From positions 688-64,687 of the forward strand of contig JAEEYV010000046.1 of assembly GCA_016288295.1 (NCBI GenBank): DNA of 64,000 bases, written 5' to 3'. Source of the DNA: Alphaproteobacteria bacterium (GTDB lineage: Bacteria; Pseudomonadota; Alphaproteobacteria; RF32; CAG-239). Below the pieces are notes generated by a model, which ran no database searches, was not told where the DNA came from, and saw only the letters and a list, made by a program, of their open reading frames with translations. The position numbers and the translations under genes were made by a program. Shown here piece after piece: positions 27,158-46,660 of this stretch (its first letter is position 1; the number at the start of each line of letters is the position of its first letter).

Positions 27158-27837
27158 AAAAGAAAATAATCGATAATCTTTTTAATCTGTTTTGTATTTG
27201 GAATATTTTCTATATTCTGATTTTGCTTTACAGCCTTATCGATGAATATTTCTTAGACCATTTTTTCTATTGGGGATACCCTCAATGGGGACGTTTATAT
27301 TCCTCTCCGCGTTTTTTTCTTTGGTTTAACATCATTTTTATTTTGCTTCTGTCAGGCACAATGTTTATTGCCTGGAAAAAACGTCATCTAAATTTTCGCC
27401 ACAGTGTGATAATGGTTTTAGCAGTTGCCGTAATTTCAATAGCCAATATGCATGTTTCTGAATATAATCGCTATCATCAGTTCAAAATTTTTGAAGCCGA
27501 ACGTGGCAAAGACAGCAGTCGCATTCCTGGTGGAATATGGTTAGTCAGCCCTAAAACATTACAAAGCTATGCGGATCAGGGGCTGATGAATAAGATAAAA
27601 GGCTGGTGGGGCAGAGGTGATTGGCCCGGTGGTATTGATATTTGGGGAGAATATCGTATATGGTTAATTCCTCATGCTGATACTGATACCAAAAACCGCC
27701 GTGGTTTGGTTATACATGGCGGTGACACACGCAGTTCTCCATGGGGCATTGATATGGGACCTGAGATAGTAGGATTTGCTCAACGCCTGCAAGCCAGCGA
27801 TACTCCGTTGGAATTAGAAATCGACTACAACGACTAA
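27154..27837 (+). CDS. hypothetical membrane-anchored protein (227 aa)
   Basis: ATGA overlap with upstream gene; N-terminal TMs; C-terminal motif RGLVIHGGDTRSSPWGIDMG resembling the IHGG...S.GCI motif of DUF2778/L,D-transpeptidase-like folds but lacking the Cys. Confidence 0.45.
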   Translation: MKKKIIDNLFNLFCIWNIFYILILLYSLIDEYFLDHFFYWGYPQWGRLYSSPRFFLWFNIIFILLLSGTMFIAWKKRHLNFRHSVIMVLAVAVISIANMHVSEYNRYHQFKIFEAERGKDSSRIPGGIWLVSPKTLQSYADQGLMNKIKGWWGRGDWPGGIDIWGEYRIWLIPHADTDTKNRRGLVIHGGDTRSSPWGIDMGPEIVGFAQRLQASDTPLELEIDYND

Positions 27838-28538
27838 TAAATTACCTTGCAAATTGCATTTATTTTACCAAGGCATTTTAGCTTGCTGAAATCCTTTATT
27901 TCTATAGGCGGATATAGGGAATTATCTGATACTATACGTGCGGTATTTTCAAATTCATTAAAGACCAAACGTTTAATAAACAACTCTCCGTGCAAATCAA
28001 ACAAGAACAACCCATCATGATTTGGTTTTGTAACTGATGTATCGACTAAAACAACATCTCTGTCATTTATTGTTGGGCTCATAGCATCACCGCTGGCAAT
28101 AACCAGTTTTAGCTTTTTTCCTTTAAGCATAGGAGTGAGCTTTATAATATCGTCGGAAAAAGGTTGTTGAGCAAGAGGTGGAGCTTTAAGCCCACGTCCT
28201 TTAGCATTGGAAGCATCTACAACATCAACAAAAGTTATTTTTGATTGCTCAACTTCCTGTGGTAATTTACTGGCTTTTTCGGGAATTTTATTTGAAAAGT
28301 TAGAATTATACTTAGTCAGATCTTCAAGATTAAGATTAAAAAAACGTGCGGCCAGAAACACTTTATCTACAGGCAAGTCTCTTTTTCCGCACAACAATTC
28401 GGAAATACGTGTTTTTTTCCATTGTAAAGCTTCAGCTGCCTCGCCCTGGCTGATATTGTTCTGCTTCATATATTTTCGCAACCATTCCCACTTATTCATT
28501 TTATTACCTTTAGTGTTAAGTATACAAACCGATAACAA
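27834..28538 (-). CDS. phage repressor (cI/LexA-like)
   Basis: N-terminal XRE-type HTH, C-terminal S24 peptidase motif GDAMSP..VLVD. Confidence 0.85.
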   Translation of the reverse strand: MLSVCILNTKGNKMNKWEWLRKYMKQNNISQGEAAEALQWKKTRISELLCGKRDLPVDKVFLAARFFNLNLEDLTKYNSNFSNKIPEKASKLPQEVEQSKITFVDVVDASNAKGRGLKAPPLAQQPFSDDIIKLTPMLKGKKLKLVIASGDAMSPTINDRDVVLVDTSVTKPNHDGLFLFDLHGELFIKRLVFNEFENTARIVSDNSLYPPIEIKDFSKLKCLGKINAICKVIY

Positions 28539-28644
28539 ATATAAGACAATCCCTGCCTAAAAGCAAGAAAAAGTTACAATTTTTGTAAAAAACAAGTGTA
28601 TATTTACCAAAAGTGTATTGACTTGTTTTACATAAAATGTATCT
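28539..28644. promoter_or_regulatory. divergent repressor / early-gene control region
   Basis: Palindrome TTACAAtttTTGTAA (28575-28589), direct repeats aagtgtat(a/t), -35 ttgact, RBS ggagg before ATG 28645. Confidence 0.5.
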
Positions 28645-29157
28645 TTGGCGTTGGAGGTAGCAATGAATACAGAGACAGAATATACAAATAAACAGAAACT
28701 TGAATCGCAAGGCTTTATCCGAACACGACACGGCGTTTATAAACTAACAGCTCTAGAACAGATTTATCGCAAGGGCTGTCTTGAATATAGTGAAACCACC
28801 TACGGTGGCCAAGATCGACTTCGTGCAGGAGAAAAACTTTCCTCTGATTATGAAAAATCACATTTTTCGACAGTAAATTCGGGGTGGCAAAATGATAAGA
28901 TAGATTCAGGTCATTACAAATTATATGATTCAGACGTGAATTATATTCGTAGTCGCTATTTAACGGCAGTACGTTCCATTCCTCGAGAATTTTGGCCTGC
29001 AGTTCGCCAGATCTGTATAGAAAATAAAATTCCTAATTTTGAAAAAGAAACATCCTCTCGAAAACGAACTCAATACAGATATTTGTGGTATTGTGACTTG
29101 TGTAGGGGGTTGGATCGTCTGATTGATCATTATCGTCGTCATAAAATTCATATATAG
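28645..29157 (+). CDS. hypothetical phage early protein (170 aa)
   Basis: First gene divergent from repressor; Cys pairs near C-terminus (CDLC) may bind zinc. Confidence 0.45.
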   Translation: MALEVAMNTETEYTNKQKLESQGFIRTRHGVYKLTALEQIYRKGCLEYSETTYGGQDRLRAGEKLSSDYEKSHFSTVNSGWQNDKIDSGHYKLYDSDVNYIRSRYLTAVRSIPREFWPAVRQICIENKIPNFEKETSSRKRTQYRYLWYCDLCRGLDRLIDHYRRHKIHI

Positions 29158-29257
29158 AAACATAAAATATTATATATTTATTGACATTCATTTATTAATT
29201 GTGTAACAATATAAAAAACAATCTATAATTGTAAAAAGTCTTTAGGGGTTTATAAAC

Positions 29258-29572
29258 ATGACCAGACATCTTATCACAAGTTCATTGAATAATATTTCAC
29301 CACAAATAGCACGAGATAATCTGCAATTAATTATTGAAAAGCTGGCTAATTCAGACTTAAACAATTTACAAACAATATATTTGTATAATATATTATATAG
29401 TATACATCAAATTTTGATTAGATACGAAACCTTGTGCCGAGAGGTTATTTTTGCAACCGAATTTGATGACGATTCAGAAAAAATGCGCAAACATATAACC
29501 AGTCTTTGTAAAAATGCGCTTTATCAAAATTTACAAGTTATTCAGATAAGCCATGATAATATTAATGTTTAA
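29258..29572 (+). CDS. hypothetical phage protein (104 aa)
   Basis: ORF with RBS; no family recognised. Confidence 0.4.
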   Translation: MTRHLITSSLNNISPQIARDNLQLIIEKLANSDLNNLQTIYLYNILYSIHQILIRYETLCREVIFATEFDDDSEKMRKHITSLCKNALYQNLQVIQISHDNINV

Positions 29573-29754
29573 AAAAGTTATCCACAGGAATCAATTCTCA
29601 TTATTGACTTTTGCGTCGCTCCGTGCTATATGTTTTTCATAAACTGGAAGAGGTGGGTTCATAGAAGATCAACCTCTTTTTTTTTATAAAAAATATTGAC
29701 AATGTTCTATTTTTGTTCTACCTTTCATTTAAACTTATTTGAAAGGTAAACAAG

Positions 29755-29949
29755 ATGTCAAAAATAAAATTCTACAACATAATTATAATCATGTCAGTCA
29801 TCGCAACATTACTTTGTATATTAGGTATGATTGCTATCATTGATGTTTGTAAAACCAGGCATATTATATTTATGATATTTAACATGATTTTTATTGCAAC
29901 ATTTTGGGTTCTTACCATCAAAGAACATAAAGAACAAATGTCTTTATAA
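29755..29949 (+). CDS. small membrane protein (64 aa, 2 TM)
   Basis: RBS aaggtaaacaag; two hydrophobic helices. Confidence 0.4.
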   Translation: MSKIKFYNIIIIMSVIATLLCILGMIAIIDVCKTRHIIFMIFNMIFIATFWVLTIKEHKEQMSL

Positions 29950-29975
29950 TTTCCAAATAAAAAATATGGTTGTCG

Positions 29976-30047
29976 CAGAGAAGATGTTTTTATAAAACTC
30001 TTCTCTGTTTTTTGTATGCGGCAAATAACAATTTGCCGCATTTTTTG
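29976..30047 (+). terminator. two tandem stem-loops upstream of the terminase small subunit (possible late-operon terminator or antitermination target)
   Basis: cagagaag...cttctctg + T-run; gcggcaaat-aaca-atttgccgc (9-bp perfect stem) + T-run. Confidence 0.5.
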
Positions 30048-30057
30048 TGGAAAAAAT

Positions 30058-30558
30058 ATGAAACATCCCAAGGATTACAAAAAAGAATATGCTCAAAAAC
30101 TTATTGAATGGTTTCGCGATGCTCCGCTCTTCATTCAAGAAGAGCAAGAAGTTTATAACAAAAAATCCGATCGTCTGGAAACGGTGGTTAATAGGGTAGC
30201 GGCACCTTGCCCCAGCATTGTGCGTTTTGCCGATAGCCTGAATGTCAGCATCGAACGGGTTTTTTTATGGCGAGATACCGAGCCCGAATTTCGTAGTGCT
30301 TATGATCAGGCTATGCACTTTCAGGAAGAATGGTTGATGAACGCCGCCGGTCTTGGTTTTTATAACTCTTCAATGTCAATTATGGCTCTAAAAGCCAATC
30401 ATGGTTGGTCCGACAAGACCGACAAGCAAAGTTTAGATGACGAACTTAAACAAGTATTAGTGCAATTTGTTAGAACTAAAGGAGAAAACATTGAAAAAAG
30501 TAACAGCACAAATTCCGGAAATTTTTGCTCCTCTGATGACGCAGAAATACCGCATTAA
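30058..30558 (+). CDS. putative terminase small subunit
   Basis: Position immediately upstream of and overlapping TerL; size 166 aa. Confidence 0.45.
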   Translation: MKHPKDYKKEYAQKLIEWFRDAPLFIQEEQEVYNKKSDRLETVVNRVAAPCPSIVRFADSLNVSIERVFLWRDTEPEFRSAYDQAMHFQEEWLMNAAGLGFYNSSMSIMALKANHGWSDKTDKQSLDDELKQVLVQFVRTKGENIEKSNSTNSGNFCSSDDAEIPH

Positions 30559-31813
30559 ATTTTATTATGGCGGACGAGCCGGAGGCAAGAGTTATGCCTT
30601 TGCCGACAGCTTATTGTTTCTGGGCCGGCAGAAAAAATTATTGATTGCTTGTCTCCGCGAAATTCAGGACAGCATGAAAGATTCGGTTTATAAACTTCTT
30701 TGTGATCGTATCAGCCACTACGGACTTTCGGATTATAAAATTTTTGAAGACAGAATTGAAAATAAAATTACTGGTACTCGTTTTATTTTTAAAGGCTTGC
30801 GTGAGCAAGATATTCAAAAAATAAAATCCTTGGAAGGTGTAGATATTGCATGGATTGAGGAAGCCCAGACCATTACGGCATCATCGTGGAAAATACTTGA
30901 ACCGACAATTCGTAAAGACGGTTCCGAAATCTGGATTTCAATGAACCGCCTTTATGAAAATGATCCCTTGTGGAAAGCAATAGCAATTCACCCTGACAAA
31001 CGTACATTAGTTGTAAAAGTTAATTATTATGACAATCCTTTTTGTCCTGAAGAGATGAAGTTGCAAGCCGAAAAATGCCGCCGTGAACACCCTGAAAATT
31101 ACGGTCATATTTGGCTTGGTGAACCGTTATCTCAAAGCGGATGCCGTCTGATATCATCACAATCCGTCCAGCGGGCGTTTGAAAAAACTATAATATCAAC
31201 TACATCCCCGCTGGTTATAGGACTTGATATCGCTCGTTTTGGCGATGACCGTACGGTATTCTGCTTTCGTAAAGGTCGCTTATGTTATAAGTTTGAAAGT
31301 TTTGAAGCCCAGAGTAATGTTGATGTAGCCAACATTGCCACAAATTTTATTAATGAGTATAAGCCACGACGTATTTTTATGGATATTGGCGGGCAGGGTG
31401 CCGGAGTTTTTGATATTTTGAAAGACCGCGGATTTGGAGAGATAATCCGCGGTATTTATTTTGGTGAAAAGGCAATTAAGTCCGACCGTTATTTTAATCG
31501 TCGTGCCGAGATGTGGAACAAAATCGCTCATTGGCTTGAGGAAAGTCCACAACCACAGCTTGTCGAAGATGATGAGCTTTTTAATGAACTTATCAGCGTT
31601 GATAAAAAATACGACAACCGTGGTCGTTTGATGTTGGAAAATAAGGATGAAATCAAGAAAAAACTCGGTCGTTCACCGGATAAAGCCGATGCTTTGGCTC
31701 TGACTTTTGCCGAGCCGATATATGACTATGGAATTCCTAAATTATACAACAGCGGAACAATCAGCGTTGAAGACATTTTTAAGTATCAGGCACGCCGCCA
31801 CGAAGGCTGGTGA
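30467..31813 (+). CDS. terminase large subunit
   Basis: N-terminal ATPase YYGGRAGGKSYAF (Walker A) followed by nuclease-type C-terminal half; 448 aa. Confidence 0.85.
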   Translation: MLELKEKTLKKVTAQIPEIFAPLMTQKYRIKFYYGGRAGGKSYAFADSLLFLGRQKKLLIACLREIQDSMKDSVYKLLCDRISHYGLSDYKIFEDRIENKITGTRFIFKGLREQDIQKIKSLEGVDIAWIEEAQTITASSWKILEPTIRKDGSEIWISMNRLYENDPLWKAIAIHPDKRTLVVKVNYYDNPFCPEEMKLQAEKCRREHPENYGHIWLGEPLSQSGCRLISSQSVQRAFEKTIISTTSPLVIGLDIARFGDDRTVFCFRKGRLCYKFESFEAQSNVDVANIATNFINEYKPRRIFMDIGGQGAGVFDILKDRGFGEIIRGIYFGEKAIKSDRYFNRRAEMWNKIAHWLEESPQPQLVEDDELFNELISVDKKYDNRGRLMLENKDEIKKKLGRSPDKADALALTFAEPIYDYGIPKLYNSGTISVEDIFKYQARRHEGW

Positions 31814-31845
31814 GTTTTAATCATATTTATGAAAGGAAAAAAACA

Positions 31846-32103
31846 ATGATACAAGCGGTAACGGATCGGGTTTTTATCAAACTCCCGCCCCAAAAAGAAA
31901 CTACCGACGGAGGAATAATAATTCCTAATGACAGACCTAATGAACGCACAATCGGTGAGGTTATTTCGGTTGGCGAAAAAGTTCATTCGGTAAAAGTCGG
32001 AGATAAAGTATTTTTCCATGTTTTTGATGATCTTCCCGGACCGTCAGAAGATGTGATTGTAGTAAGAGAAAACAGTATTTTAGGAGTAATTGAAAATGAG
32101 TAA
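31846..32103 (+). CDS. phage-encoded GroES-like co-chaperonin
   Basis: RVFIKL..ETTDGGIIIP...GEVISVG...VKVGDKVFF...ILGVIE matches the Hsp10 mobile-loop and beta-barrel pattern. Confidence 0.6.
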   Translation: MIQAVTDRVFIKLPPQKETTDGGIIIPNDRPNERTIGEVISVGEKVHSVKVGDKVFFHVFDDLPGPSEDVIVVRENSILGVIENE

Positions 32104-33889
32104 CAAAACACAACGAGAGCAAGTAGATGCCTGGCTTGAAAAAATTGCCGCGGCAGAAAAAATTTACCAACCGTATTATGATCTAATTAATGAAACCCGT
32201 AGTTTCTACAAAGACAGTCGTCATCGTCGTGCCGGTAATTATAATATTTTCTGGTCAACGATAGAAACTTTAAAACCGTTTTTATATTTCAAACAGCCCC
32301 AATTTTATATTGAACGTCAAAATAAAAGTTCTGATGCAGTTGAAAGAGCTGCTTGCACCATATTGGAAAAAGCTCTGCTTTGGAATATGAGTCAATTTGA
32401 TTTTGATAGCGTAATTAAATATGCCCGTAATGATTTTTTGATTTCCGGAACCGGTCTGGTTTGGGAACAATATGTCCCCGAATTTGCCGAAGTTCCCAAT
32501 CCGGTAAATCCCGAAGAAAATATTTCCGTAAAAGTTGATGAGAATGTTGAAACAGTCTACGTTGATCCCAAAGACTTTTTGGCTGATTGTGATCAAAAAG
32601 GCGTGTGGGAAGATGTTGAATGGATTGCCCGCCGCATATACATGAGCGCAGACGACGTTGTTCAAACATTTAATGCACCGGATATCATACAGCAGGGAGA
32701 TATTTGCGTTTATGAAATTTGGGATAGAAAGACACGTACGGTTTATTGGCTTTCCAGAGCCTGTCCGAACCGTTTTCTAAAAATAAATTCCAATGTTCAA
32801 AGCACCAAAAATTTCTTTCCTTGCCCCAAACCTATCTGGTCAACCCAAACCAACGACAGCATTATTCCGACTCCGGATTATTGCCTGATAAAAGAAATGC
32901 TTAATGAACTAAACGGTATAAACAGCCGTATGCGTATGACCATGCAAGCCCTGAAAATCAGCGGCGCGTACGACAACTCTTTTCCCGAATTAGCAGATAT
33001 CTTAAGTAAAGATGTTACCCTTATTTCAGTCAATGACTTTTCACGTTTACGTGATAGCGGTGGTATTCGCGGTATTATTGATTTTGTTCCGCTTGAGCAA
33101 TATATATCAGCGCTTGAACAATTATCAGTACGTCGTCAGGAGGTAATTAATAGTATTTTTGAAATTACCGGCGTATCAGACATTATGCGTGGTAATTCTG
33201 ACGGTAACGAAACTGCTACCGCCATTGTCAAAAAAACAAATTTTGGAACATTGCGTAACCAAGATCGTCAGAATGATATGCAACGTTTTATACGCGATTT
33301 ATTGCGTATAAAGGCCGAAATAATTTGCGAATATTTTTCACCCGACAAATTAAAATCATTTTTACCCGAAGAAATAAAACAAAATGAAGAACTGGCTCAG
33401 GCTGCCGTCAGTCTGCTTAAGCAAGAAAAATTACGTGGTATGATGTTTAGTGTCGAAACTACCAACATCTTGAATCAAACCGAGGAAAATACCGCAACCA
33501 TATCAGCTGTTGAAAGTATAAGTCATCTTGTACAAGATGCTTTGATTAATGTTACCCAACAGCCCAAATTATTGCCACTTTACCGCAGTATGGTTGAGGC
33601 TGTAGTTTCAACCATGCCTCGTGCCCGTTGTTTTGAAACAGTTTTGGAGCGCGTTTTCACCGATATTGAACAAGAGTTGTCAGCACCGGAACCTTTGCCG
33701 CAATCTAATGAGCCGACAACCGATCAAATTATTGAACTTCAGAAAAACGCTCTCAAAGATAAGGAATTAAATATTAAGGCGGCAATCGAGGCTGACAAAC
33801 TTGATTTTTCTCGTCAGGAATTACAAACCCAATCACTTAATAAGGCAAGAGAAGCCGCTGTCGAAGCCAAAAAAGCCGTAATGAGGTAA
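32090..33889 (+). CDS. putative portal protein
   Basis: 599 aa immediately after terminase; synteny. Confidence 0.55.
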   Translation: MKMSNKTQREQVDAWLEKIAAAEKIYQPYYDLINETRSFYKDSRHRRAGNYNIFWSTIETLKPFLYFKQPQFYIERQNKSSDAVERAACTILEKALLWNMSQFDFDSVIKYARNDFLISGTGLVWEQYVPEFAEVPNPVNPEENISVKVDENVETVYVDPKDFLADCDQKGVWEDVEWIARRIYMSADDVVQTFNAPDIIQQGDICVYEIWDRKTRTVYWLSRACPNRFLKINSNVQSTKNFFPCPKPIWSTQTNDSIIPTPDYCLIKEMLNELNGINSRMRMTMQALKISGAYDNSFPELADILSKDVTLISVNDFSRLRDSGGIRGIIDFVPLEQYISALEQLSVRRQEVINSIFEITGVSDIMRGNSDGNETATAIVKKTNFGTLRNQDRQNDMQRFIRDLLRIKAEIICEYFSPDKLKSFLPEEIKQNEELAQAAVSLLKQEKLRGMMFSVETTNILNQTEENTATISAVESISHLVQDALINVTQQPKLLPLYRSMVEAVVSTMPRARCFETVLERVFTDIEQELSAPEPLPQSNEPTTDQIIELQKNALKDKELNIKAAIEADKLDFSRQELQTQSLNKAREAAVEAKKAVMR

Positions 33890-33891
33890 CT

Positions 33892-34143
33892 ATGACTTAT
33901 TTCAACAAACAATGGACGGAAGAACTTGTTCTTCCCGATGGAACTATTGCCGTCTGTGTTCAAGATGTTGACCGTTATTTACGTGCCAACAATCTGAGCG
34001 TTGCCGGTGATTATTCGGATGCCTTCCGCCGGACAGTAAGATATAACCGGGAACAGGCGCTTCGCAAAGATTTTTTTGCGGAATTTATCAATAATTATAA
34101 AAGGAGAATATGGAATGCAACAAACCACAAGAGAACTTCTTGA
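33892..34143 (+). CDS. hypothetical phage protein (83 aa)
   Basis: ORF between portal and scaffold. Confidence 0.4.
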   Translation: MTYFNKQWTEELVLPDGTIAVCVQDVDRYLRANNLSVAGDYSDAFRRTVRYNREQALRKDFFAEFINNYKRRIWNATNHKRTS

Positions 34144-34810: not shown

Positions 34811-34833
34811 CCAGATCTAAAAGGAAAAAACAC

Positions 34834-35820
34834 ATGGCTAATAATGATTATAATGATATTTTTACAACCACACTCACCAGCCGCAGTGGTCAGCTTGCCG
34901 ATGCCGTTTCCAACAACAACGCATTGTTAAAACGTCTGCAGGAAAAAGGGCATAACCGCATGCTTGCCGGCGGTTCAAAAATTATTGAAGAACTCGAATA
35001 TGGCGAAGGAGATTTGTCATGGTATTCAGGATATGATACCATCACCTACACTCCCAAACAGTTGTTCAGTGCTGCCGAATATTCGTTGAAACTCTGCGCC
35101 GTTCCGGTAGCTATTTCCGGTGAAGAATTGCTTAAAAACTCTGGTCAATATCAGATGATTGACTTGTTTGAAAAACGCATTGAAAACGCTGTCAAAACCA
35201 TGAGCAATAAAATGGCCGAAGCTGTTTATAGCGATGGTACCGGATCTAATGGTAAATCAATCGGCGGTTTAAGTTTGTTGGTAGCCGATTTCCCGAGCAG
35301 CGGTACTGTCGGTAACATCAACCGTGCTACTGCGGGTAACGAATTTTGGCGTAACAAAGCCACAGAACTTACCGGAACCATTACTTCAGACAGCTTGCGT
35401 TCGGCAATGGATTCAATGTATATGTCATTGACCCGTGGTATTGATAAACCTGATTTGATTGTTACTGGCAATGATTGGTATTCATTGTTTGAACAATCAT
35501 TGACAGCTCAACAGCGTTTTGTTGATACCAGATTGGCTGATGCCGGTTTTGAGGCTTTGCGCTTTAAAGGTGCGGATGTTGTTTGTGACGGCGGACAAGG
35601 CGGTTGTTGCCCCGACGGCAAAATGTATTTTCTCAACACCAATTATCTGTATTTGCGTACTCATAAAGACCGCAATATGAAAGTAATCGGCGGTGAGAGA
35701 ATGTCAGTTAACCAAGATGCCATCTACAAAATCATTGGTTGGGCCGGTAACTTAACAATGTCCAATGCAGCTTTGCAAGGCGTTGTATTTACTGATACTA
35801 CTTCGTCAGAAGGTGAATAA
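34834..35820 (+). CDS. putative major capsid protein
   Basis: 328 aa after scaffold; followed by a strong GNRA-loop terminator. Confidence 0.55.
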   Translation: MANNDYNDIFTTTLTSRSGQLADAVSNNNALLKRLQEKGHNRMLAGGSKIIEELEYGEGDLSWYSGYDTITYTPKQLFSAAEYSLKLCAVPVAISGEELLKNSGQYQMIDLFEKRIENAVKTMSNKMAEAVYSDGTGSNGKSIGGLSLLVADFPSSGTVGNINRATAGNEFWRNKATELTGTITSDSLRSAMDSMYMSLTRGIDKPDLIVTGNDWYSLFEQSLTAQQRFVDTRLADAGFEALRFKGADVVCDGGQGGCCPDGKMYFLNTNYLYLRTHKDRNMKVIGGERMSVNQDAIYKIIGWAGNLTMSNAALQGVVFTDTTSSEGE

Positions 35821-35828
35821 TTAAGCAG

Positions 35829-35855
35829 GCGGCGTCAGCAATGACGCCGCTTTTT
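35829..35855 (+). terminator. rho-independent terminator (GCAA tetraloop)
   Basis: 9-bp stem gcggcgtca/tgacgccgc, loop gcaa, T5. Confidence 0.75.
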
Positions 35856-35870
35856 ACTAAGGAGACAGCA

Positions 35871-36455
35871 ATGGATTTTTCAACATTTGAAAAAGTAATA
35901 CATAACAACCAATCGGAAGAAGGGGTAATTGCCCGTTTTTATGATCAAGCAGTAAAAACCTCTCAAATAACCAAAGACGGTCTACCCAAATTTAAATTGG
36001 TTTGTTTTTGTGAAATACGCATAAAAGATAATAGTTCCGAAGTTTATAATCAACCGGCGACACCAGATAAAATCAGACGTTTTCCAAATGAATATGCTCG
36101 TTATAAACAGGCTAAAAAATGTGCGGAAGAAGGTACACCGCTGGAGCAATTTGCATTTTTAGATGCAGCTGAAATTGCCGGTCTGAAAGTGCGTGGAATT
36201 TACACGGTTGAACACCTTACAAAACTTGATGCCGCCCATGCCGAAGAGCTCGGTATTACTAAAGAACGAGAATTGGCAATTAAATTTGTTGAACAGGCCA
36301 AAGGCAATGCATTGCTGGTAGAATGGCAGAAAAAAGAACAAGAATACCAAAAGCGCATTAAAGAACTTGAAGCAAAAGTTGAAAATCTGCAACAACCCAA
36401 AAAAATAAGGAGCAAAGATGAAAAACATACTCGAAATATGTCAAGACGCAGCTAA
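35871..36455 (+). CDS. hypothetical phage structural protein (195 aa)
   Basis: RBS taaggag; coiled-coil C-terminus; the track start at 35841 lies inside the terminator stem. Confidence 0.45.
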   Translation: MDFSTFEKVIHNNQSEEGVIARFYDQAVKTSQITKDGLPKFKLVCFCEIRIKDNSSEVYNQPATPDKIRRFPNEYARYKQAKKCAEEGTPLEQFAFLDAAEIAGLKVRGIYTVEHLTKLDAAHAEELGITKERELAIKFVEQAKGNALLVEWQKKEQEYQKRIKELEAKVENLQQPKKIRSKDEKHTRNMSRRS

Positions 36456-37125
36456 TTTGGCGTGCGTTCAAGAGCCGCAAAGTTTATTCAACAACAGCAG
36501 CCAAAACAATCGTGTTTTTTTGAGTATTGCTAAGGATGCGTTGAATGGACTTTTACGTTACGGAGATTGGCAAGAACTAACTAAAGACGGTGAATTGGTA
36601 ACCGCCAAGGATAAAACCGACTATCTTATCAGAAGCTTTTGTCCCGACTTTTTTCAACTGTTGAACAATACCGTATATATTAAAGATGCACATGAAAAAG
36701 TAATCGGTTCAATCCGTCCAGAACAATGGCAGCATGAAAAATATTTTCATAGCGATGATAACACTATCAAATTTAAAATTCAAAATTCGATGTTTCGTTT
36801 TCTAACGCCACCACCCGAAGGCATAAAAATTGTTTTTCAATATCGCTCATCAGTAGTTGCATATGAAGAAGGAATGTTTACCGAAAAAACCGAAATAACG
36901 AAAGATACCGATATTCCGGTTTTTGATGAATATTTAGTAAAGCTTGCTATTCGTTGGCGTCTTCAGGCCCGTAATGGTTTGGCATATCAAGAAGAATTTT
37001 TGGAATACGAAAATGAATGTCGCAAACGTTTCGGTTCAACTCTTGCCACTAAAGATATACACCTGGGCGGAGGCATTGATTGTATGTCAGATGGAGGAAT
37101 AGCCTATGTTAAACAGAGCATTTAG
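36418..37125 (+). CDS. hypothetical phage structural protein (235 aa)
   Basis: Overlapping operon architecture. Confidence 0.45.
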   Translation: MKNILEICQDAANLACVQEPQSLFNNSSQNNRVFLSIAKDALNGLLRYGDWQELTKDGELVTAKDKTDYLIRSFCPDFFQLLNNTVYIKDAHEKVIGSIRPEQWQHEKYFHSDDNTIKFKIQNSMFRFLTPPPEGIKIVFQYRSSVVAYEEGMFTEKTEITKDTDIPVFDEYLVKLAIRWRLQARNGLAYQEEFLEYENECRKRFGSTLATKDIHLGGGIDCMSDGGIAYVKQSI

Positions 37126-38653
37126 TCGTTCACAAAATTATATTTTACCGGCTCCTGTCGGAGGACTAAACTGTCGCGACAGCCTTGATAATATGTCCGA
37201 AACTGATGCCATTATAATGGATAATTATTATCCATCGGAAACCAATGTTTGTCTACGTGGCGGTTATAAAATATACGCTTTAGAGGGACTAGGACTAAAG
37301 GTCGAAAGCCTTATAACTTTTTCCTCTCCTCAAAATAAACGTATGTTTGCTGCCGCCAATGGCAAAATTATTGATATAACATCTGATAATTATACTGTCG
37401 ATGTTGATAATCTTTATGCAAATAATTGGAATTATGTTCAATTTCGCAATCGTCTTCTTTTGGTCAACGGTATGGACAATCCCTTAACTTATTTCAAAGA
37501 CGGAAACGATGTTTGGACATGGCAACAAACCAATATTGCCGGCGAAGGACTTAATATACGTAATTTATCTAATGTAGCTGTTTCTAAGCAACGTGTTTTT
37601 TATGTTGAAAAAGGTTCTTTAACTTATTGGTATTCATCCAATGTCGGAGAAGTCGAAGGCGTTCTTAATAGTGTTGATCTGTCATCACTAATCAGTCGCG
37701 GTGGCAGCCTTGCTGCCATAGCCTGTTGGACACAGGACGGCGGACAGGGAATAGACGATTTAACAGTTTTTATTACTACTGAAGGAGAAGTTTTGGTGTA
37801 TTCGGGAACTAATCCCGGTAATGCCGATAACTGGTCTTTGCGGGGCAAATATTTTATCAGCCGTCCAATAGGCAATCATTGTGTGATGCAATATCAGGGC
37901 GACATAATTGTAATCTGTGAAGACGGGTATCTTCCTTTGTCATCTGTACTTCCGTTGGGTGAAAGTTCTATAGGCAAAACCGCTTATAGTGATAAGATAA
38001 GAGGATTAGTTCTATCTCGTGTTAGAACAGGAAAAAATATTGCTGGTTGGCAAAGTATCATTTACCCTCGTGGCGGTTATGTTTTATTCAATGTTCCAGT
38101 TGGTGGACAGTTTGAACAACATGTAATTAATATGAGCTCCGGCGCTTGGTGCAGATTTACCAATATATATTCACTTTGTTGGTGCTTGTTTGAAGGCCGT
38201 CTATACTTTGGCTCTGATGGTGGTGTCTATTTGTTTGATGAAGGTCACTCCGACAACGGTGTTGCAATTTGTGGTAATGTTCACCAAGCCTATTGTTCGT
38301 TGGGTACATTAAATCTCAAAAAGATTCAAATGCTCAATCCTCGAACCAAAAGTTCAGCAATCTTCGGATTAAACATTTATACCAATATGGATTTTGATGA
38401 TAAAGAGCAAGATTATTCCGAGAATATTGGCGAAAGCGCAGGCACCAAGTGGAACAAAAGTAAATGGAGCAGTCTTGAACATCCTATAGGAACCAAATGG
38501 TCAACCCTCAAAGGTATTGTGCGCAGTCAATGGATATCCAATAATGCCACGGGATTTAAGGCCTCTCTTGTATTCAAAACCAAAACTAAAGGCAATCTTA
38601 TTGAGTGGTATAATACCGGTTTTCGTTTTGAGCAAGGAGCAGGCATTGTCTAA
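37106..38653 (+). CDS. putative tail/adaptor protein (515 aa)
   Basis: Largest structural gene after the capsid module; no tape-measure-sized gene in the cluster, suggesting a short-tailed morphology. Confidence 0.4.
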   Translation: MLNRAFSRSQNYILPAPVGGLNCRDSLDNMSETDAIIMDNYYPSETNVCLRGGYKIYALEGLGLKVESLITFSSPQNKRMFAAANGKIIDITSDNYTVDVDNLYANNWNYVQFRNRLLLVNGMDNPLTYFKDGNDVWTWQQTNIAGEGLNIRNLSNVAVSKQRVFYVEKGSLTYWYSSNVGEVEGVLNSVDLSSLISRGGSLAAIACWTQDGGQGIDDLTVFITTEGEVLVYSGTNPGNADNWSLRGKYFISRPIGNHCVMQYQGDIIVICEDGYLPLSSVLPLGESSIGKTAYSDKIRGLVLSRVRTGKNIAGWQSIIYPRGGYVLFNVPVGGQFEQHVINMSSGAWCRFTNIYSLCWCLFEGRLYFGSDGGVYLFDEGHSDNGVAICGNVHQAYCSLGTLNLKKIQMLNPRTKSSAIFGLNIYTNMDFDDKEQDYSENIGESAGTKWNKSKWSSLEHPIGTKWSTLKGIVRSQWISNNATGFKASLVFKTKTKGNLIEWYNTGFRFEQGAGIV

Positions 38654-39071
38654 CATAATTTATGATTGTAGCGGGCGGATTGCTCGTTATGTTGCTGGTG
38701 GTTTAAGGCTTGAACCTGACGAACTGTTGAAAGGTTTTTCATTTGCAATTTTACACAATAATAAACTTGTCGGAGGTGTAGCATTTAGTGATTATCATCC
38801 CGATGATTCAGCATGGATAAGTATTTATACAACAGACAAACATTGGTGTACGGCAATTTGTTTAAAGCAAATTTTCGGCATAGCTTTTAATGTTTTAAAT
38901 TGTCGTCGTATCAATGCTCTTATACGTTCGGATAACCATGCCTCAATTTCATTAGCAACCAGATGCGGTTTTGTTTTTGAAGGCAAAATGCGCAAATATT
39001 TTTCAACCGGTCAAGATGCCTTAATTTTAGGTATGTTGGCTTCAGAATGTAAATTTATCAATCATCAATAA
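38647..39071 (+). CDS. GNAT family N-acetyltransferase (moron)
   Basis: Conserved GNAT core (..LVGGVAFSDY.., ..RINALIRSDNHASISLATRCGF..); likely non-ATG start overlapping upstream stop. Confidence 0.55.
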
Positions 39072-39083
39072 CAGGAGAAAATC

Positions 39084-39992
39084 ATGTCTAGTGGATTTAA
39101 AGCAGTGGGAAAACTCTTAGGTGCAGGTAATGCCAGTACATCCCCTTACAAATCAGAAAGCAATATTTTAAATTATTTACAAAATTATAATACATCTAAT
39201 TATGATAATACGGTGCAAAATTTGCTCAATAATGCTTATGATATGAGCAAAAATGTCAATCAGATGAGCAATTATACATATAATATTGATGGCTCTGACG
39301 CAGCCCGTCAACGCGCTGAAAATGCAACATATCAATCATATGTTAATCGTCTTCAACCGCAGTTTGCTCAACAAACAAGTGATCTTGAAACTCGCCTTCA
39401 AAACCAGGGTATAACAGTTGGCAGTGATGCCTACAATCGCGCTATGAGCAATTTGCAGAACAGTCAAAATAATGCGTATAATCAGGCGGCGTATCAGTCT
39501 GTTCTTAATGGTCAAAATGCATTTTCTCAAAGCTTAAATAATGCTGCATTGGCAGCAAATTTCGGCAACAATGCGAAAAACAATTACCTGAGTCAAATTA
39601 TTTCTCAACTGCAATTAGGTCATTCCGGCTATGACAATGCTATGAATATCTACAATGTTCAACATGGTGTTGACAGTAGAATTAGTGCTGCCAAAGAAAA
39701 TAATGCCAACGCTCAAATTCAGGCCGGAAGAGATGCTTTGGGGACGGCAGCTCAAGTTGGAATGTTACTGTTTTCGGATGTTCGTCTGAAGGAAAATCTA
39801 AAACCCGTTGGAAAACTTGATAACGGCCTGACGGTTTATTGTTTCAATTTCAAAGGTAGTAAAACTCCGCAAATCGGTTTGCTGGCACAAGAAGTTATAG
39901 ACGTTATTCCTGAAGCTGTTTATGAAGGTGAAGACGGTTATTTAATGTTACGCTATGATGTGGCGTGCGGTTTACCAACCACAAAGGAGTAA
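39084..39992 (+). CDS. Q/N-rich tail fibre protein with C-terminal S74 intramolecular chaperone domain
   Basis: C-terminal SDVRLKENLKPVG motif typical of Peptidase_S74 autoprocessing chaperone. Confidence 0.6.
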   Translation: MSSGFKAVGKLLGAGNASTSPYKSESNILNYLQNYNTSNYDNTVQNLLNNAYDMSKNVNQMSNYTYNIDGSDAARQRAENATYQSYVNRLQPQFAQQTSDLETRLQNQGITVGSDAYNRAMSNLQNSQNNAYNQAAYQSVLNGQNAFSQSLNNAALAANFGNNAKNNYLSQIISQLQLGHSGYDNAMNIYNVQHGVDSRISAAKENNANAQIQAGRDALGTAAQVGMLLFSDVRLKENLKPVGKLDNGLTVYCFNFKGSKTPQIGLLAQEVIDVIPEAVYEGEDGYLMLRYDVACGLPTTKE

Positions 39993-39996
39993 TACA

Positions 39997-40344
39997 ATGA
40001 CAGGTATGATGACACCGAACGGAATTTTGGTTCGTCAAGGCGACAGTTTTGACATTGCCATGCGTTTTAAGCATAAAGATGGAACACCACTGGATATTTC
40101 TGGTTCACAAGTTTGCCTAGATGTAAAAGATGACGAGGACAACATTATTCTGCATATCAACGGTGATATTACGGATGCAACTAATGGATATGTTGTTATC
40201 AAAATAACTCCACAGCATTCAAATCTAAATGTCGGAACTTATGAAGCCAATATCAAAATTACTTTTGCTAATGGCGATGTACATACGGTGTTTCCGCAAG
40301 ATTTGAGCCAAAATGCAGTATTTCAAATAAGTGAAGGGGTATGA
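39997..40344 (+). CDS. hypothetical tail-associated protein (115 aa)
   Basis: RBS aaggag before ATG 39997. Confidence 0.4.
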   Translation: MTGMMTPNGILVRQGDSFDIAMRFKHKDGTPLDISGSQVCLDVKDDEDNIILHINGDITDATNGYVVIKITPQHSNLNVGTYEANIKITFANGDVHTVFPQDLSQNAVFQISEGV

Positions 40345-40345
40345 T

Positions 40346-41035
40346 ATGACTGAAATCAATATTTTTGAAAATTATGCATCCAAAGAATTTGATGTTTGCT
40401 TTCAAGACGAAGCAGCTCTTAATACCACCGCTGATCTCAAATATGTAAAATATGGGCAAGATGAGATAGATAATTATGTTGCCTCGGTCAGTAAACCTGA
40501 ATTATCAAATTATGTTGATGACCAAAAGCAAGTAATTAATATTGAAACCAATCAATCTATAACATCTATCAGTAATGCCGTTCAGCAAGGAATTGATGAC
40601 ATCAATACAGTCATTGCCGAGTATGATCAGAGTTATATAACCATAGATACCGAGCAAGTCATCACTGGTGATAAAACATTTGAAGGTTCATTGCAAGCAG
40701 TAACTCCTGATGCCGATGATTTATCTCCTTGTGTTGCAACTACAGCTTTTGTTAATGGTGGCAATATTGTCAGTCAGGGAACAAATCATGTCCAATATTC
40801 AGGTGGACTTATTATGCAATGGGGAACAATTGAAGTGAGCAATAGTGCCGGAGAAAATTGTGTTTATGAAATTCCGTTTACATCAAATTCATACGCTATA
40901 TCACTTACACATATCGCTGATGCAGTAACTCCGATAACTTTCTCTACGGCCTCTGTCGTTTCTCACTCATTGACCGGTTTTAGTGTGGGTAGCAACGATT
41001 TAGGAACGTGGTTTTGGTTAGCAATTGGCTTTTAA
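40346..41035 (+). CDS. putative tail fibre / receptor-binding protein
   Basis: 229 aa; position between fibre and lysis genes. Confidence 0.4.
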   Translation: MTEINIFENYASKEFDVCFQDEAALNTTADLKYVKYGQDEIDNYVASVSKPELSNYVDDQKQVINIETNQSITSISNAVQQGIDDINTVIAEYDQSYITIDTEQVITGDKTFEGSLQAVTPDADDLSPCVATTAFVNGGNIVSQGTNHVQYSGGLIMQWGTIEVSNSAGENCVYEIPFTSNSYAISLTHIADAVTPITFSTASVVSHSLTGFSVGSNDLGTWFWLAIGF

Positions 41036-41074
41036 TTAGGGGCAGCAATGCCCCTTTTTTTTACGGAGGAAAAC

Positions 41075-41359
41075 ATGGATTTTATCAATACAATCGGCGG
41101 CATATCAGGCATTGCCGCCTTGGCCGGAATGTTGTGGAACTTGGTCAAATTAGGTTCATGGAAAGGTCGCTTGGAAGAACGTATGGAAGGTGTGCTGCAA
41201 CGCATAGATAAAGCTGATAAAGAAACAGCCTCGGCAATCATGATGCAGAATCAGCAAAACATAATGTTGGCAAAACTTGAAAGCAAATTTGATAGTTTTG
41301 AAACCAAACTTGATCTTTTGTTAAATTGCAAACATAAAGGAGGCAAAAATGTCTCCTGA
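41075..41359 (+). CDS. putative holin
   Basis: Single TM (IGGISGIAALAGMLWNLV) + charged C-terminus; immediately upstream of endolysin; preceded by GCAA-loop terminator (41038-41062) and RBS ggagg. Confidence 0.55.
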   Translation: MDFINTIGGISGIAALAGMLWNLVKLGSWKGRLEERMEGVLQRIDKADKETASAIMMQNQQNIMLAKLESKFDSFETKLDLLLNCKHKGGKNVS

Positions 41360-41789
41360 TGATTGGGATGATTTGCACATAATGGCCGCTACACTATGGG
41401 GAGAGGCGCGGGGCGATGGTATTGAAGGTATGGAAGCGGTTGCCTGTGTGATTGTAAACCGCTTCAATGCCCGCAAATGGTTTACCGGTTATCGTCTTGA
41501 TGACGGCATTAAAATACCCGATGTCAAGCAAACATGCCTAAAAAAATACCAATTCAGCTGTTGGAACAAGACCGATCCAAATTTTTCAAAAATTCTCAAA
41601 TTAAATTCAAGTGATAAAATGTTTTGTTTATGCCTAAAAATTGCTGATAAAGCTATTAGCGGAAAACTTACAGACTTTACCAATAACGCAACCTTTTATC
41701 ACACCCGCAGCATATTTCCAATATGGGCAAAACATCATAGTCCTTGCTATGAAACTACCCATCATCTGTTCTATAATGACATCAAATAA
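41349..41789 (+). CDS. SleB-type cell wall hydrolase (endolysin)
   Basis: ATLWGEARGDG..GMEAVACVIVNR...QFSCW motifs of Hydrolase_2/SleB. Confidence 0.75.
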   Translation: MSPDDWDDLHIMAATLWGEARGDGIEGMEAVACVIVNRFNARKWFTGYRLDDGIKIPDVKQTCLKKYQFSCWNKTDPNFSKILKLNSSDKMFCLCLKIADKAISGKLTDFTNNATFYHTRSIFPIWAKHHSPCYETTHHLFYNDIK

Positions 41790-41801
41790 TAGGAGATCTA
41801 A

Positions 41802-41945
41802 ATGGAAGAACATAAAAACTGCCGTTATCGTTTTTTGAAATGGATAATACGTATGGCGCTGCGTCACCGAAAAATATATTGGCTTCTTTGGGGAATGATT
41901 GCCGTAATGTTTGCAGTCGGTATAAACATAAAGGAACTCTGGTAA
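41802..41945 (+). CDS. small TM peptide (47 aa)
   Basis: RBS aggag; one TM; could be antiholin or a lysis accessory protein. Confidence 0.3.
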   Translation: MEEHKNCRYRFLKWIIRMALRHRKIYWLLWGMIAVMFAVGINIKELW

Positions 41946-41946
41946 A

Positions 41947-42153
41947 ATGGCAAAGACAGCATTGATACTCTGTATCTGTATAACAATATCTGTTTTTTCA
42001 TATTTACTGGGACGCTCTCATGCTCGCACAGAAATCGTAACCAAACAAGTAGAGGTCATCAAATATGTTGAAAAGAAAAAATCTGCCATATATTCTAGCC
42101 CCCATGCTGGGCGCGATGCTTTGCTTGAGCTCATGCGCCAAAACAGATTATAA
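41947..42153 (+). CDS. i-spanin (Rz-like)
   Basis: N-terminal TM then charged periplasmic domain. Confidence 0.55.
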   Translation: MAKTALILCICITISVFSYLLGRSHARTEIVTKQVEVIKYVEKKKSAIYSSPHAGRDALLELMRQNRL

Positions 42154-42292
42154 CTTTTGTCCGTCTTATCCTACAGCAGGCCCTGAAGTTGCTAAAGAGC
42201 TTGAAAATATTGATTATAGTCGATATTCGCGTTTTTGGGAATGGTTGGCCAGAATAGATAAACTTCGTCAAGAGCTAGAGCTTTGTAAATAA
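42065..42292 (+). CDS. o-spanin (Rz1-like lipoprotein), overlapped in +1 frame with the i-spanin
   Basis: Lipobox LSSC, Pro-rich short periplasmic peptide; starts inside the Rz-like ORF in a different frame and extends past it. Confidence 0.55.
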   Translation: MLKRKNLPYILAPMLGAMLCLSSCAKTDYNFCPSYPTAGPEVAKELENIDYSRYSRFWEWLARIDKLRQELELCK

Positions 42293-46625: not shown

Positions 46626-46660
46626 GTGTAGAAGCGGATGGGATTTGAACCCTGGAACAA
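46626..46660 (-). repeat. inverted partial copy of the tRNA-Lys T-arm/3' region
   Basis: gggatttgaaccctgg (46640-46655) is the reverse complement of tRNA 46560-46575 at 15/16 positions. Confidence 0.6.

Follow-up and report, generated by a model that had tools for sequence, protein, structure and literature searches.

We analyzed a 14.5-kb phage-like gene cluster at positions 27834 to 42292 of a 64-kb stretch of alphaproteobacterial DNA (contig JAEEYV010000046.1; the whole stretch is called the window, and all position numbers refer to it). According to the map of its open reading frames (ORFs) and to Pfam and PHROG scans of their translations, the cluster contains repressor, packaging, head, short-tail, fiber, and lysis genes. 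Comparative genomics lends good support to its interpretation as a domesticated locus for particle production, for which the name gene transfer agent (GTA) is proposed as a hypothesis. We consider it probable that the locus is domesticated and non-autonomous, i.e., the vertically inherited remnant of a temperate short-tailed phage, and that it works by the full mechanism outlined below. The lack of integration and replication genes, the single fixed site, and the co-divergence with the host together point to a phage remnant that is kept by the host. This account of the locus is computational as a whole.

A preliminary description of the window had left two options, a cryptic prophage and a GTA-like domesticated locus. 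The site, the co-divergence, the dN/dS values, and the lack of att sites and integrase favor the domesticated option, although the conservation is not absolute. Nearly every gene listed in that description was recovered in its place by Pfam and PHROG, the scaffold, holin, and spanins by position or features only; a GNAT acetyltransferase gene at 38517 to 39071 and a regulator gene of the DUF6456 superfamily had not been listed.

The absence of genes for integration, excision, and replication was confirmed, also for the DNA just outside the cluster: the ORFs scanned between 14.5 and 51.8 kb matched no Pfam or PHROG family of integrases, recombinases, or replication proteins, and an integrase is lacking from the 13 kb on the left side and the 9 kb on the right side of the cluster. 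Furthermore, no integrase or replication protein was detected among the variable ORFs scanned from 24 related loci (up to 10 kb on each side of the capsid gene). Most matches of those ORFs were to fiber, SAA, and Tlde1/YkuD-like domains or to flank genes, and many ORFs had no match. The search for att-like direct repeats at the junctions yielded only imperfect repeats at chance level, and the nearest tRNA gene (tRNA-Lys at 46512) is located 4.2 kb from the cluster, in line with the earlier statement that repeats and tRNA genes are missing from the junctions. The locus thus does not show the marks of an integrated temperate prophage, i.e., an integrase or recombinase, att repeats, and often a tRNA target.

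Both flanks are chromosomal, as previously described. On the left, the order is ruvA, ruvB, a ybgC-like thioesterase gene, tolQ, tolR, probable tolA, and two uncharacterized ORFs; the tolA assignment is by position only, the ORF having no Pfam match. On the right, an ABC exporter gene and a U32 peptidase gene precede tRNA-Lys. The composition of the cluster equals that of the host (GC content of 0.383 versus 0.386; tetranucleotide r of 0.983 versus 0.988 in a host-versus-host control).

Conservation and co-divergence at one chromosomal address

Related loci, designated by L numbers, were compared with the window. In a scan with capsid peptides of a genome set in which each GTDB species is represented once, the cluster was found in 24 species-level genomes, with capsid identities of 66 to 98%. 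Nearly all of them are metagenome-assembled genomes (MAGs) whose sources are rumen, deer, yak, and human gut and whose labels read Alphaproteobacteria, Rhodospirillales, or "Azospirillum"; the few Bacteroidaceae and Ruminococcus gnavus labels are taken to be bin mislabels. By tblastn with all window proteins, the whole cluster was detected in the gene order of the window in L001 to L011. The left flank (tolA side) is shared by L001, L002, L004, L009, L011, and L026, the first five of which have tolA together with the two uncharacterized ORFs, and the ABC exporter flank by L001, L002, L004, L006 to L008, L011, L016, L018, L023, L027 to L031, L036, and L038. In the distant loci L016, L018, and L023, the exporter is just 70% identical and the cluster still adjoins it. 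The clade with the same flank spans approximately 30% protein divergence.

A scan of metagenomes seeded with the exporter returned 80 loci. Every exporter-U32 locus with enough upstream sequence (nine informative loci) had the spanin genes and, farther on, genes of phage-like type, and an empty tolA-to-exporter junction was present in none of the nine. Since many exporter homologues (59 to 79% identity) were located in unrelated contexts, synteny defines a clade and not the whole group.

The cluster proteins diverged together with the exporter. Mantel r values against the ABC exporter were 0.96 for the capsid, 0.95 for the large terminase subunit (TerL), and 0.94 for the portal (11 taxa; 0 of 2,000 permutations reached the observed r), and with two tail proteins included, r ranged from 0.94 to 0.96 against the exporter protein distances. 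Neighbor-joining trees of cluster and exporter had nearly the same topology, and the capsid, TerL, and portal distances were approximately 1.1 to 1.5 times those of the exporter.

Synonymous sites were saturated even against the nearest species, with dS values of 0.7 to 3 in the cluster and 0.8 to 1.5 in tolQ, tolR, and tolA; for this reason, dating by dS was ruled out. In the comparison with L001 and L002, dN/dS was 0.01 to 0.02 for the capsid, 0.016 to 0.02 for TerL, and 0.02 to 0.05 for the tail genes. Where dS could be estimated, the other cluster genes had values of at most 0.28, except for the ORF at 33892 (0.23 to 0.36). The portal and a few others were left out because of saturated dS. 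Thus, dN/dS, which the preliminary description had suggested as a check, was well below 1 for every gene with usable dS. An intact cluster that lacks integrase and replication genes and stays at one address while silent sites become saturated is being kept and is not decaying.

This argues directly against an inert cryptic prophage in decay, a reading that we regard as very improbable. The missing integrase and replication genes and the mutated protease site of the repressor (see below) would be expected in a decaying element, but more than 20 species have all genes in intact form, dN/dS stays far below 1 although dS is saturated, and control elements are conserved in position (operators, and terminators with different stems). 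The conservation and synteny across species, likewise suggested earlier as a check, gave a largely vertical picture, with the same site in many species and co-divergence; it was broken by a replacement between L036 and L037 and by some other flanks (see below). A fixed site and co-divergence are the criteria that separate the Bartonella GTA (BaGTA) from Bartonella prophages (PMC6899734).

Phage relatives and a complete prophage as comparator

The capsid protein is 44 to 46% identical to those of the Myxococcus phages Mx8 and Mx9, ppBjS10J-1 (Bradyrhizobium), and BUCT555 (Stenotrophomonas) and 27% identical to those of the Brucella Tb-like phages. The genomes of capsid-related phages have 38 to 53 kb, and those of Mx8, ppBjS10J-1, and pCB2047-C have 40 to 50 kb. 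The portal is 27 to 29% identical to those of Mx8 and ppBjS10J-1, and a 515-aa tail protein is 30% identical to its counterparts in pCB2047-C (E value of 1e-48) and ppBjS10J-1 (1e-56). The closest phage TerL proteins, including those of the P22-like phages Sf101 and CUS-3, are 34% identical. Short tails are characteristic of Mx8, the Brucella Tb-like phages, and pCB2047-C, and the Pfam and PHROG scans of the cluster detected no tape measure, tube, contractile sheath, or prohead protease family. The label "podovirus-like" of the preliminary description therefore fits, and its statement that a recognizable tape measure gene is missing holds. A scan of IMG/VR with the capsid peptides gave no match.

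The window shares with pCB2047-C and ppBjS10J-1 a common gene order: terL, portal, a small ORF, scaffold, capsid, tail genes, the 515-aa tail protein gene, GNAT, and an S74-like gene. The Sulfitobacter phage pCB2047-C has an integrase and a repressor, and ppBjS10J-1 adjoins tRNA-Asp. Compared with the window, both contain recombination or replication genes and an additional 7 to 8 kb of large tail or ejection genes. The scaffold has 231 aa in the window versus 312 to 361 aa in these two phages. We consider it probable that the ancestor was of the Mx8, ppBjS10J-1, and pCB2047-C kind and that it lost the integrase, the early/replication region, and most of the large tail or ejection genes. What is retained is the immunity repressor, a late regulator, the packaging, head, short-tail, and fiber genes, and a lysis cassette.

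The best available "before" state, i.e., an ancestor-like comparator, is L113 (positions 1 to 20510), a complete-looking metagenomic prophage that is partly sampled and whose TerL is 59% identical to that of the window. Its genes are, in order, an integrase gene, small genes, a Bro-N gene, and an S24 repressor gene that faces a cro-like gene. These are followed by genes for GapR and a methyltransferase, two ORFs (184 and 386 aa), the homologue of the window regulator, a 43-aa ORF, terS (small terminase subunit), and terL. The portal of L113 is of a different type (Head-tail_con). In the window, the repressor faces the regulator directly, and the early/replication block and the integrase arm of L113 are gone. 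None of the compact loci has an early region between repressor and late regulator. This includes L116, a further compact form that is integrase-less and has a left flank other than that of the window. L113 and the compact cluster form a before-and-after pair that may show the conversion of a prophage into a particle locus kept by its host: the compact form has neither the integrase nor the early/replication region, its repressor directly abuts the late regulator, and in one subclade, the protease site has been lost.

Complete relatives with an integrase, such as L113, which has the same regulator-terS-terL arrangement and the similar TerL, could mean that the window harbors an active temperate phage whose integration and replication are supplied elsewhere, by an unlinked integrase, host Xer, or a helper prophage. 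The strain-level replacement between L036 and L037 would fit such mobility, and so would cargo between the endolysin and spanin genes of L030, L031, L033, and L036. However, the same site is occupied across species with saturated synonymous sites, neither att repeats nor a nearby integrase nor empty sites were found, and the early region is missing from all compact loci. We consider an active phage improbable.

Control elements and the proposed route to particles

The repressor gene (27834 to 28499, minus strand; 221 aa) encodes an HTH_3 and a Peptidase_S24 domain (Pfam; E value of 4e-15 for S24). Its ORF runs to 28538, and the true start is at 28499. The S24 nucleophile is replaced by alanine: ASGDAMS of the repressor aligns with ASGDSMI of UmuD, and the catalytic Lys is kept in all repressors compared. 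Alanine is present in the window, L001, L002, L004, L009, and L026; L011, L024, L116 (compact), and L113 (complete prophage) have retained serine. A repressor alignment that included LexA and lambda cI was checked independently by the alignment with UmuD. The exchange of the catalytic Ser for Ala makes self-cleavage in the SOS response doubtful. The single cI/LexA-type repressor of the preliminary description is thus an HTH_3/S24 protein, but it has Ala as nucleophile and is accompanied by a second regulator.

Between the two divergent genes lies a 163-bp control region (28500 to 28662) with TACA-N5-TGTA palindromes at 28575 to 28587 and 28629 to 28641. Two of the three matches to this motif in the window fall in the spacer, and approximately one match per 64 kb is expected. 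One palindrome is located between the hexamers of a promoter-like site, TTGACT-16-TATCTT (28618 to 28645). L002 and L004 each have two TACA-N5-TGTA motifs 24 bp apart. We infer that the repressor binds these palindromes.

The adjoining gene (28663 to 29157, plus strand; 164 aa) encodes a putative late-gene regulator of the DUF6456 (GafA) superfamily. On its own, the protein gave a subthreshold DUF6456 match (20.6 bits, below the Pfam cutoff), but 15 of 17 homologues of it match DUF6456. A profile of the regulator family retrieved only 154 proteins from 1.84 billion representatives, among them the true DUF6456 members P0161 (148 bits to the Pfam model), P0156, P0152, and P0089. Comparison of the family with P0161 by hhalign yielded 97.4% probability and an E value of 1e-11. 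In its structural model, the regulator has a sigma-region-4/Q-like fold; a Foldseek search of the PDB with this model returned nothing significant. The regulator matched no PHROG family and was absent from a collection of 50,697 phage records, apart from one mislabeled chromosomal record. GafA, the direct activator of RcGTA, is annotated as DUF6456 (PMC9638019, PMC9765227). The homologue in prophage L113 is 32% identical and is located just upstream of terS. This position and the predicted fold point to a late-gene activator or antiterminator. The regulator is of a phage-derived type that is shared with GTAs, and it is no proof of GTA status.

A leader with three terminator-like structures separates the regulator from terS. 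It harbors a conserved 104-aa ORF (29258 to 29572, plus strand) with no family match, which has homologues in the same place in L001, L002, L004, L009, and L025; its dN/dS was 0.16 to 0.20 versus L001, L002, and L004 and 0.59 versus L009. Downstream of it, there is a hairpin with a U-tract, T1 (29646 to 29680, plus strand; the fold of 29640 to 29692 has -12.6 kcal/mol), and then a small membrane ORF of 64 aa (29755 to 29949, plus strand), which corresponds to a gene call in L109 and is conserved in L001 and L002 (66 to 70%) and L004 (36%). T2 (29974 to 30009, plus strand; -16.4 kcal/mol) and T3 (30016 to 30041, plus strand; -15.6 kcal/mol) follow. With 11 pairs, T3 was the strongest plus-strand terminator in the scan. 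The approximately 17 nt from its end to the start of terS are too few to accommodate a promoter. A hairpin with a U-tract was also found at positions -40 to -17 of terS in L001, L002, and L006 to L010. The stems in those loci differ (GCGGCAAAT, CGGCAGA, ACCGCT, ATCGCTC, GAGCC), and a constant position with different stem sequences indicates conservation of the structure rather than of the sequence. Each sequence was folded separately, because stem and loop lengths differ and the MAFFT columns are out of register for a covariation count. A further terminator-like hairpin (41038 to 41055, plus strand; seven pairs, five of them G-C, with a T8 run; -13.2 kcal/mol) lies between the fiber and holin genes. 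Three terminators before terS suggest control by antitermination, and read-through by this means would be the simplest interpretation of them.

Based on these elements, we propose the following mechanism for the domesticated locus. The HTH-S24 repressor would keep the DUF6456 gene off by occupying the two palindromes that overlap its promoter; given the Ser-to-Ala exchange, the trigger for release would probably not be classical RecA-mediated cleavage. Once made, the DUF6456 protein would load onto RNA polymerase at the leader promoter and enable read-through of T1 to T3 into terS and, further downstream, of the terminator before the holin gene. With a P22-type TerS and a Terminase_3 TerL, packaging would be headful and would start from the unexcised, unreplicated chromosome, filling the particles with host DNA; a headful-type terminase in a locus that has no excision and replication functions would imply this. 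Holin, SleB endolysin, and spanins would then lyse the producer cell. The net result would be a host-maintained producer of DNA-filled short-tailed particles, similar to a GTA.

Virome sequences were considered as evidence for packaging and rejected. Two GenBank records from a gut alphaproteobacterium, MT835830.1 (L025) and MT837095.1 (L026), were deposited as "UNVERIFIED: Bacteriophage sp."; the first contains the cluster, and the second contains ruvB, tolQ, tolR, probable tolA, and the repressor gene. Their record series is full of housekeeping genes (aspS, metK, an msbA-like gene, and others) and therefore says nothing about packaging. The probable source of both records is PMC8361208, a link that we infer.

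Several points weigh against a domesticated locus with the proposed mechanism. Particle production, DNA content, and transfer are predicted from the genes. A phage-type repressor has been retained, and since a DUF6456 regulator is present in a true prophage (L113) as well, it is not a GTA hallmark. A head of the ancestral size (phages of 39 to 53 kb) would hold the 14.5-kb cluster, so the locus may fall outside the size criterion for a GTA, and with a full-length P22 gp3-type TerS, packaging could be pac specific instead of random. The reference gene for co-divergence, the exporter, is physically linked to the cluster. Other flanks were found in L013, L014, L017, L019 to L022, and L024, and the gene order is rearranged in L014 to L023. 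Finally, L036 and L037 share 99.9% identity to the right of a point slightly upstream of the spanins and are unrelated to the left of it.

The last of these observations belongs to a wider pattern of exchange. On its left side, L037 has other tail-like genes, a tail-fiber assembly gene, and a different endolysin gene; the only contig with the exact L037 protein is 6.5 kb long, and its upstream genes match nothing. The window itself is 100% identical to L108 to L110 from 24.8 to approximately 41.0 kb and 92 to 98% identical beyond. Relative to L001, it is 63 to 88% identical up to approximately 41.0 kb and 94 to 100% identical beyond, with dS values of 0.02 to 0.16 in the right part and above 0.7 elsewhere. 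This switch in relatedness, at approximately 41.0 to 41.1 kb, falls on the terminator between the fiber genes and the holin gene and points either to a recombination tract of very recent date or to an assembly that is strain-chimeric. The U32 peptidase gene (44140 to 46404) has dS values of 0.14 to 0.16 versus L001 and L002, whose other genes have values above 0.8, suggesting that it was recently transferred or swept among species. Cargo of 2 to 8 kb, comprising large ORFs with no Pfam match, is present between endolysin and spanins in L030 and L031 (approximately 6.6 to 8.8 kb), L033 (513 to 7490), and L036 (6450 to 8673), and this gap looks like a cargo hotspot. Recombination, swaps, and cargo fit frequent homologous module exchange among relatives.

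Such exchange raises an alternative in which the cluster is an anchored selfish element. Headful packaging in situ would proceed rightward from a pac site at or near terS, and re-entry would occur by homologous recombination through the flanks. The first headful would comprise the whole cluster and tens of kilobases of downstream chromosome, allowing allele swaps with neither integrase nor replicon, as in lateral transduction. This reading is favored by the full-length P22-type TerS and the headful-type TerL, by ancestral-type heads of 40 to 50 kb, in which the cluster would fit, and by the recent recombination tracts, which begin within the cluster and extend into its right flank (L108 to L110, L001). 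Together with the module replacement between the near-identical strains L036 and L037, the fixed address, the co-divergence, and the rightward tracts would find one common explanation. However, the overall co-divergence with the host gene means that any such transfer stays among close relatives. Moreover, there are two or three tracts only, the available flanks are too short to establish a left/right asymmetry, strain-chimeric metagenome assembly could account for the 41-kb breakpoint, and a pac site was not identified. We rate an anchored element as unlikely.

A different benefit to the host is conceivable if the packaged DNA is irrelevant. The locus would then be a PBSX-like killer particle or a lysis device for competitor killing, release of DNA or other public goods, or phage exclusion. 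An immunity-type repressor with only packaging, head, tail, and lysis genes at one site is the PBSX-like logic, and the fiber module diversifies fast and is swapped between strains, as expected for targeting. On the other hand, killing by a tail machine is unlikely for a cluster with no contractile sheath, tube, or tape measure, and the strongest purifying selection acts on capsid and terminase (dN/dS of 0.01 to 0.02), which are not needed for pure killing or lysis. Accordingly, we see little probability in this alternative as well.

Known elements, gene map, and neighboring features

In architecture and control, the likeness of the window cluster to BaGTA is striking, as judged by gene sizes and order. 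BaGTA (bgtA-K locus; Bartogtaviriformidae) also has an animal-associated alphaproteobacterial host and a cluster of approximately 14 kb, with matching sizes and order of TerL (1,344 bp versus an ORF of 1,347 bp), portal, a scaffold-sized gene, capsid, and a tail gene of approximately 1.5 kb (PMC3610622). Both have tail-collar and endosialidase/S74-type fiber genes (PMC5496983), both keep to one place in the chromosome and co-diverge with their hosts (PMC6899734), and both have a long leader, BaGTA being controlled by the Q21-like processive antiterminator BrrG (10.1101/2024.11.20.624540). The TerL of pCB2047-C was reported to be nested among BaGTA TerL proteins (PMC9662315); since the window TerL has only 28% identity with that of pCB2047-C in the N-terminal half, the TerL link by this route is weak. 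For the run-off-replication module of BaGTA, no counterpart was found near the window cluster: no phage replication or exonuclease genes were detected among the window ORFs from 14.5 to 51.8 kb by the libraries scanned, in which the brr genes have no models and with which the origin is not recognizable from sequence. Further differences are that the window regulator adjoins the cluster and belongs to the DUF6456 superfamily and that the hosts of BaGTA are Bartonella, whereas those of the window cluster are uncultured gut and rumen bacteria. An identity with Bartonella and BaGTA, suspected from the low GC content and the 14-kb size, was rejected because the capsid relatives are MAGs of uncultured gut and rumen Alphaproteobacteria.

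With RcGTA and the Caulobacter-type CcGTA, the window shares a vertically inherited head, tail, and packaging cluster that lacks integrase and replication genes. It further shares with RcGTA a regulator of the DUF6456 superfamily (GafA), although the similarity of the window protein is remote (20.6 bits). Terminators are a feature common with CcGTA; GafZ-type antitermination acts within the CcGTA cluster, whereas the window terminators lie ahead of the cluster (PMC11150451). Pfam and PHROG gave no HK97 Phage_capsid, Phage_portal, prohead protease, or tape measure match in the window cluster, i.e., no RcGTA structural homologues. An RcGTA-type element (Rhodogtaviriformidae) was therefore excluded; the structural genes are unrelated, and the window PHROGs are those of Mx8-like phages. 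In contrast to RcGTA with its siphovirus-like tail, the window encodes a short tail, a scaffold in place of a protease, lysis genes inside the cluster, and its own phage-type repressor.

The prophage L113 resembles the window in its S24 repressor, DUF6456 regulator, terS, and terL and differs by having an integrase, early/replication genes, and the catalytic Ser of the repressor. PBSX of Bacillus subtilis and FpGTA of Faecalibacterium are, like the window cluster, defective and fixed at one site, and these two make particles that package host DNA. They belong to different phyla and consist of unrelated genes; packaging was measured for them, while the window is known from its genes. Moreover, PBSX has a contractile tail, and FpGTA has a 10.5-kb operon and a TerS that lacks a DNA-binding domain. 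Capsid-forming satellites (cf-PICIs) have an integrase and a regulator/primase-replication module and no tail genes. A satellite of this type was rejected for the window, in whose scanned ORFs neither an integrase nor a primase was found and whose cluster has tail, fiber, and lysis genes.

Full-text literature searches found no GTA described for gut Alphaproteobacteria. According to a 2019 review, RcGTA-type elements and BaGTA are the only two alphaproteobacterial GTA lineages known (PMC6899734), and according to another paper, FpGTA is the only GTA-like element found in the human gut microbiome (PMC12946183). If our reading is true, the window cluster would be a third, independently domesticated, short-tailed element of widespread, uncultured Alphaproteobacteria and an additional route of gene exchange in gut and rumen communities. 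In the true prophage L113, a DUF6456 gene lies shortly before terS, which suggests a descent of the GafA-type activators of GTAs from phage late regulators. This descent fits the proposal that antitermination, which is the control mode of CcGTA (PMC11150451) and BaGTA (10.1101/2024.11.20.624540), is a common control principle of alphaproteobacterial GTAs.

All remaining cluster genes are on the plus strand, and gene calls on three metagenome contigs with an identical capsid match the window map and refine several starts. The packaging genes are terS (30059 to 30558; called with 166 aa), of the P22 gp3 type, with a GP3_package score of 29.4 bits that equals the curated cutoff exactly, and terL (30467 to 31813; probable start near 30536), a Terminase_3 gene of the PBSX/P22-like headful type (Pfam E value of 1e-34). 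They are followed by a gene for a GroES-like co-chaperonin (31810 to 32103; Cpn10, 5e-14), which is kept in all loci covering its position, and by the portal gene (32090 to 33889; phrog_12082, 6e-109), for which Pfam gives just a weak SPP1_portal match (0.003). The 83-aa ORF between portal and scaffold (33892 to 34143) is conserved in position: it is kept in every locus covering that position, and pCB2047-C has an equivalent small gene 3' of the portal gene. The next ORF (34076 to 34810; called as 34115 to 34810, 231 aa) has no family match and is a probable scaffold gene by position only, as it occupies the slot of the annotated pCB2047-C scaffold. The major capsid protein gene (34834 to 35820) matches phrog_9953 (8e-104) and no Pfam family. 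Sequence searches of the PDB with the portal, the capsid, the 515-aa tail protein, and the regulator profile gave nothing useful.

A virion/tail gene (35841 to 36455; phrog_20268), a tail gene (36418 to 37125; phrog_6013), and the gene for the 515-aa tail protein (37106 to 38653; phrog_5107) are followed by the GNAT acetyltransferase gene (called as 38646 to 39071, 141 aa; Acetyltransf_3/1/4, phrog_4470), a slot that is also filled in both reference phages, pCB2047-C and ppBjS10J-1. The fiber and receptor-binding module (39084 to 41035) comprises, by Pfam, an S74-chaperone fiber (39084 to 39992), a BppU_N protein (39955 to 40344), and a Gp53-like_C fiber (40331 to 41035). It is the most variable part across the loci, with other fiber genes inserted there. 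The lysis cassette (41048 to 42292), which adjoins the ABC exporter in loci keeping the right flank, contains a putative holin gene (41048 to 41359; by position and one predicted transmembrane segment), a SleB-type endolysin gene (41349 to 41789; Hydrolase_2, Pfam E value of 1e-13), and an overlapping pair of i- and o-spanin-like genes (41947 to 42153 and 42065 to 42292), the second with an LSSC lipobox. In L014 and L016 to L023, which represent the most distant species, the order is regulator, cpn10, portal, fibers, holin, SleB, terL, scaffold, capsid, tail genes, and S74.

The left boundary of the element may be at 27154 or 26426 and not at the repressor gene. The gap between tolA and the cluster contains a membrane ORF of 243 aa (26426 to 27157, plus strand) and an ORF of 227 aa (27154 to 27837, plus strand), neither with a Pfam or PHROG match. 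Their products are 69% and 71% identical, respectively, to those of L001, compared with 96 to 98% for tolQ, tolR, and probable tolA; with 69%, the membrane ORF thus evolves like the accessory genes of the cluster. Homologues of the 227-aa ORF are located inside rearranged clusters, in L013 at 2577, just upstream of terL, and in L016 at 7631, between terL and the homologue of the ORF at 33892. Both ORFs possibly belong to the element. Probable tolA is not followed by tolB-pal but by these two fast-evolving ORFs, and the cluster may sit within what is the tol-pal operon elsewhere.

SAA-domain ORFs (E value of 3e-20), odd for a bacterial phage-like locus, were observed in or beside the cluster in L009 (20274 to 20957), L007 (6242 to 6658), L008 (6347 to 6763), and L116 (10775 to 12306). 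In the window, a tail-collar protein (48124 to 48972, plus strand; Collar PF07484, 2e-20; phrog_523) is encoded outside the cluster, 6 kb downstream and past tRNA-Lys in a low-GC stretch. In the loci L027, L028, L030, L031, L036, and L038 from human gut, its homologues (41 to 44% identity) belong to the cluster itself and are flanked there by the S74 and BppU genes, making it a possible accessory fiber gene encoded away from the cluster. The site directly after a tRNA gene is the classical place of an integrase. Directly after tRNA-Lys, a 341-aa ORF (46638 to 47663) has no Pfam match and a weak match to an uncharacterized PHROG. On the other side, tRNA-Gln adjoins an ORF of 393 aa (19681 to 20862) that encodes a Phage_lysozyme domain and lies 8 kb to the left of the cluster.

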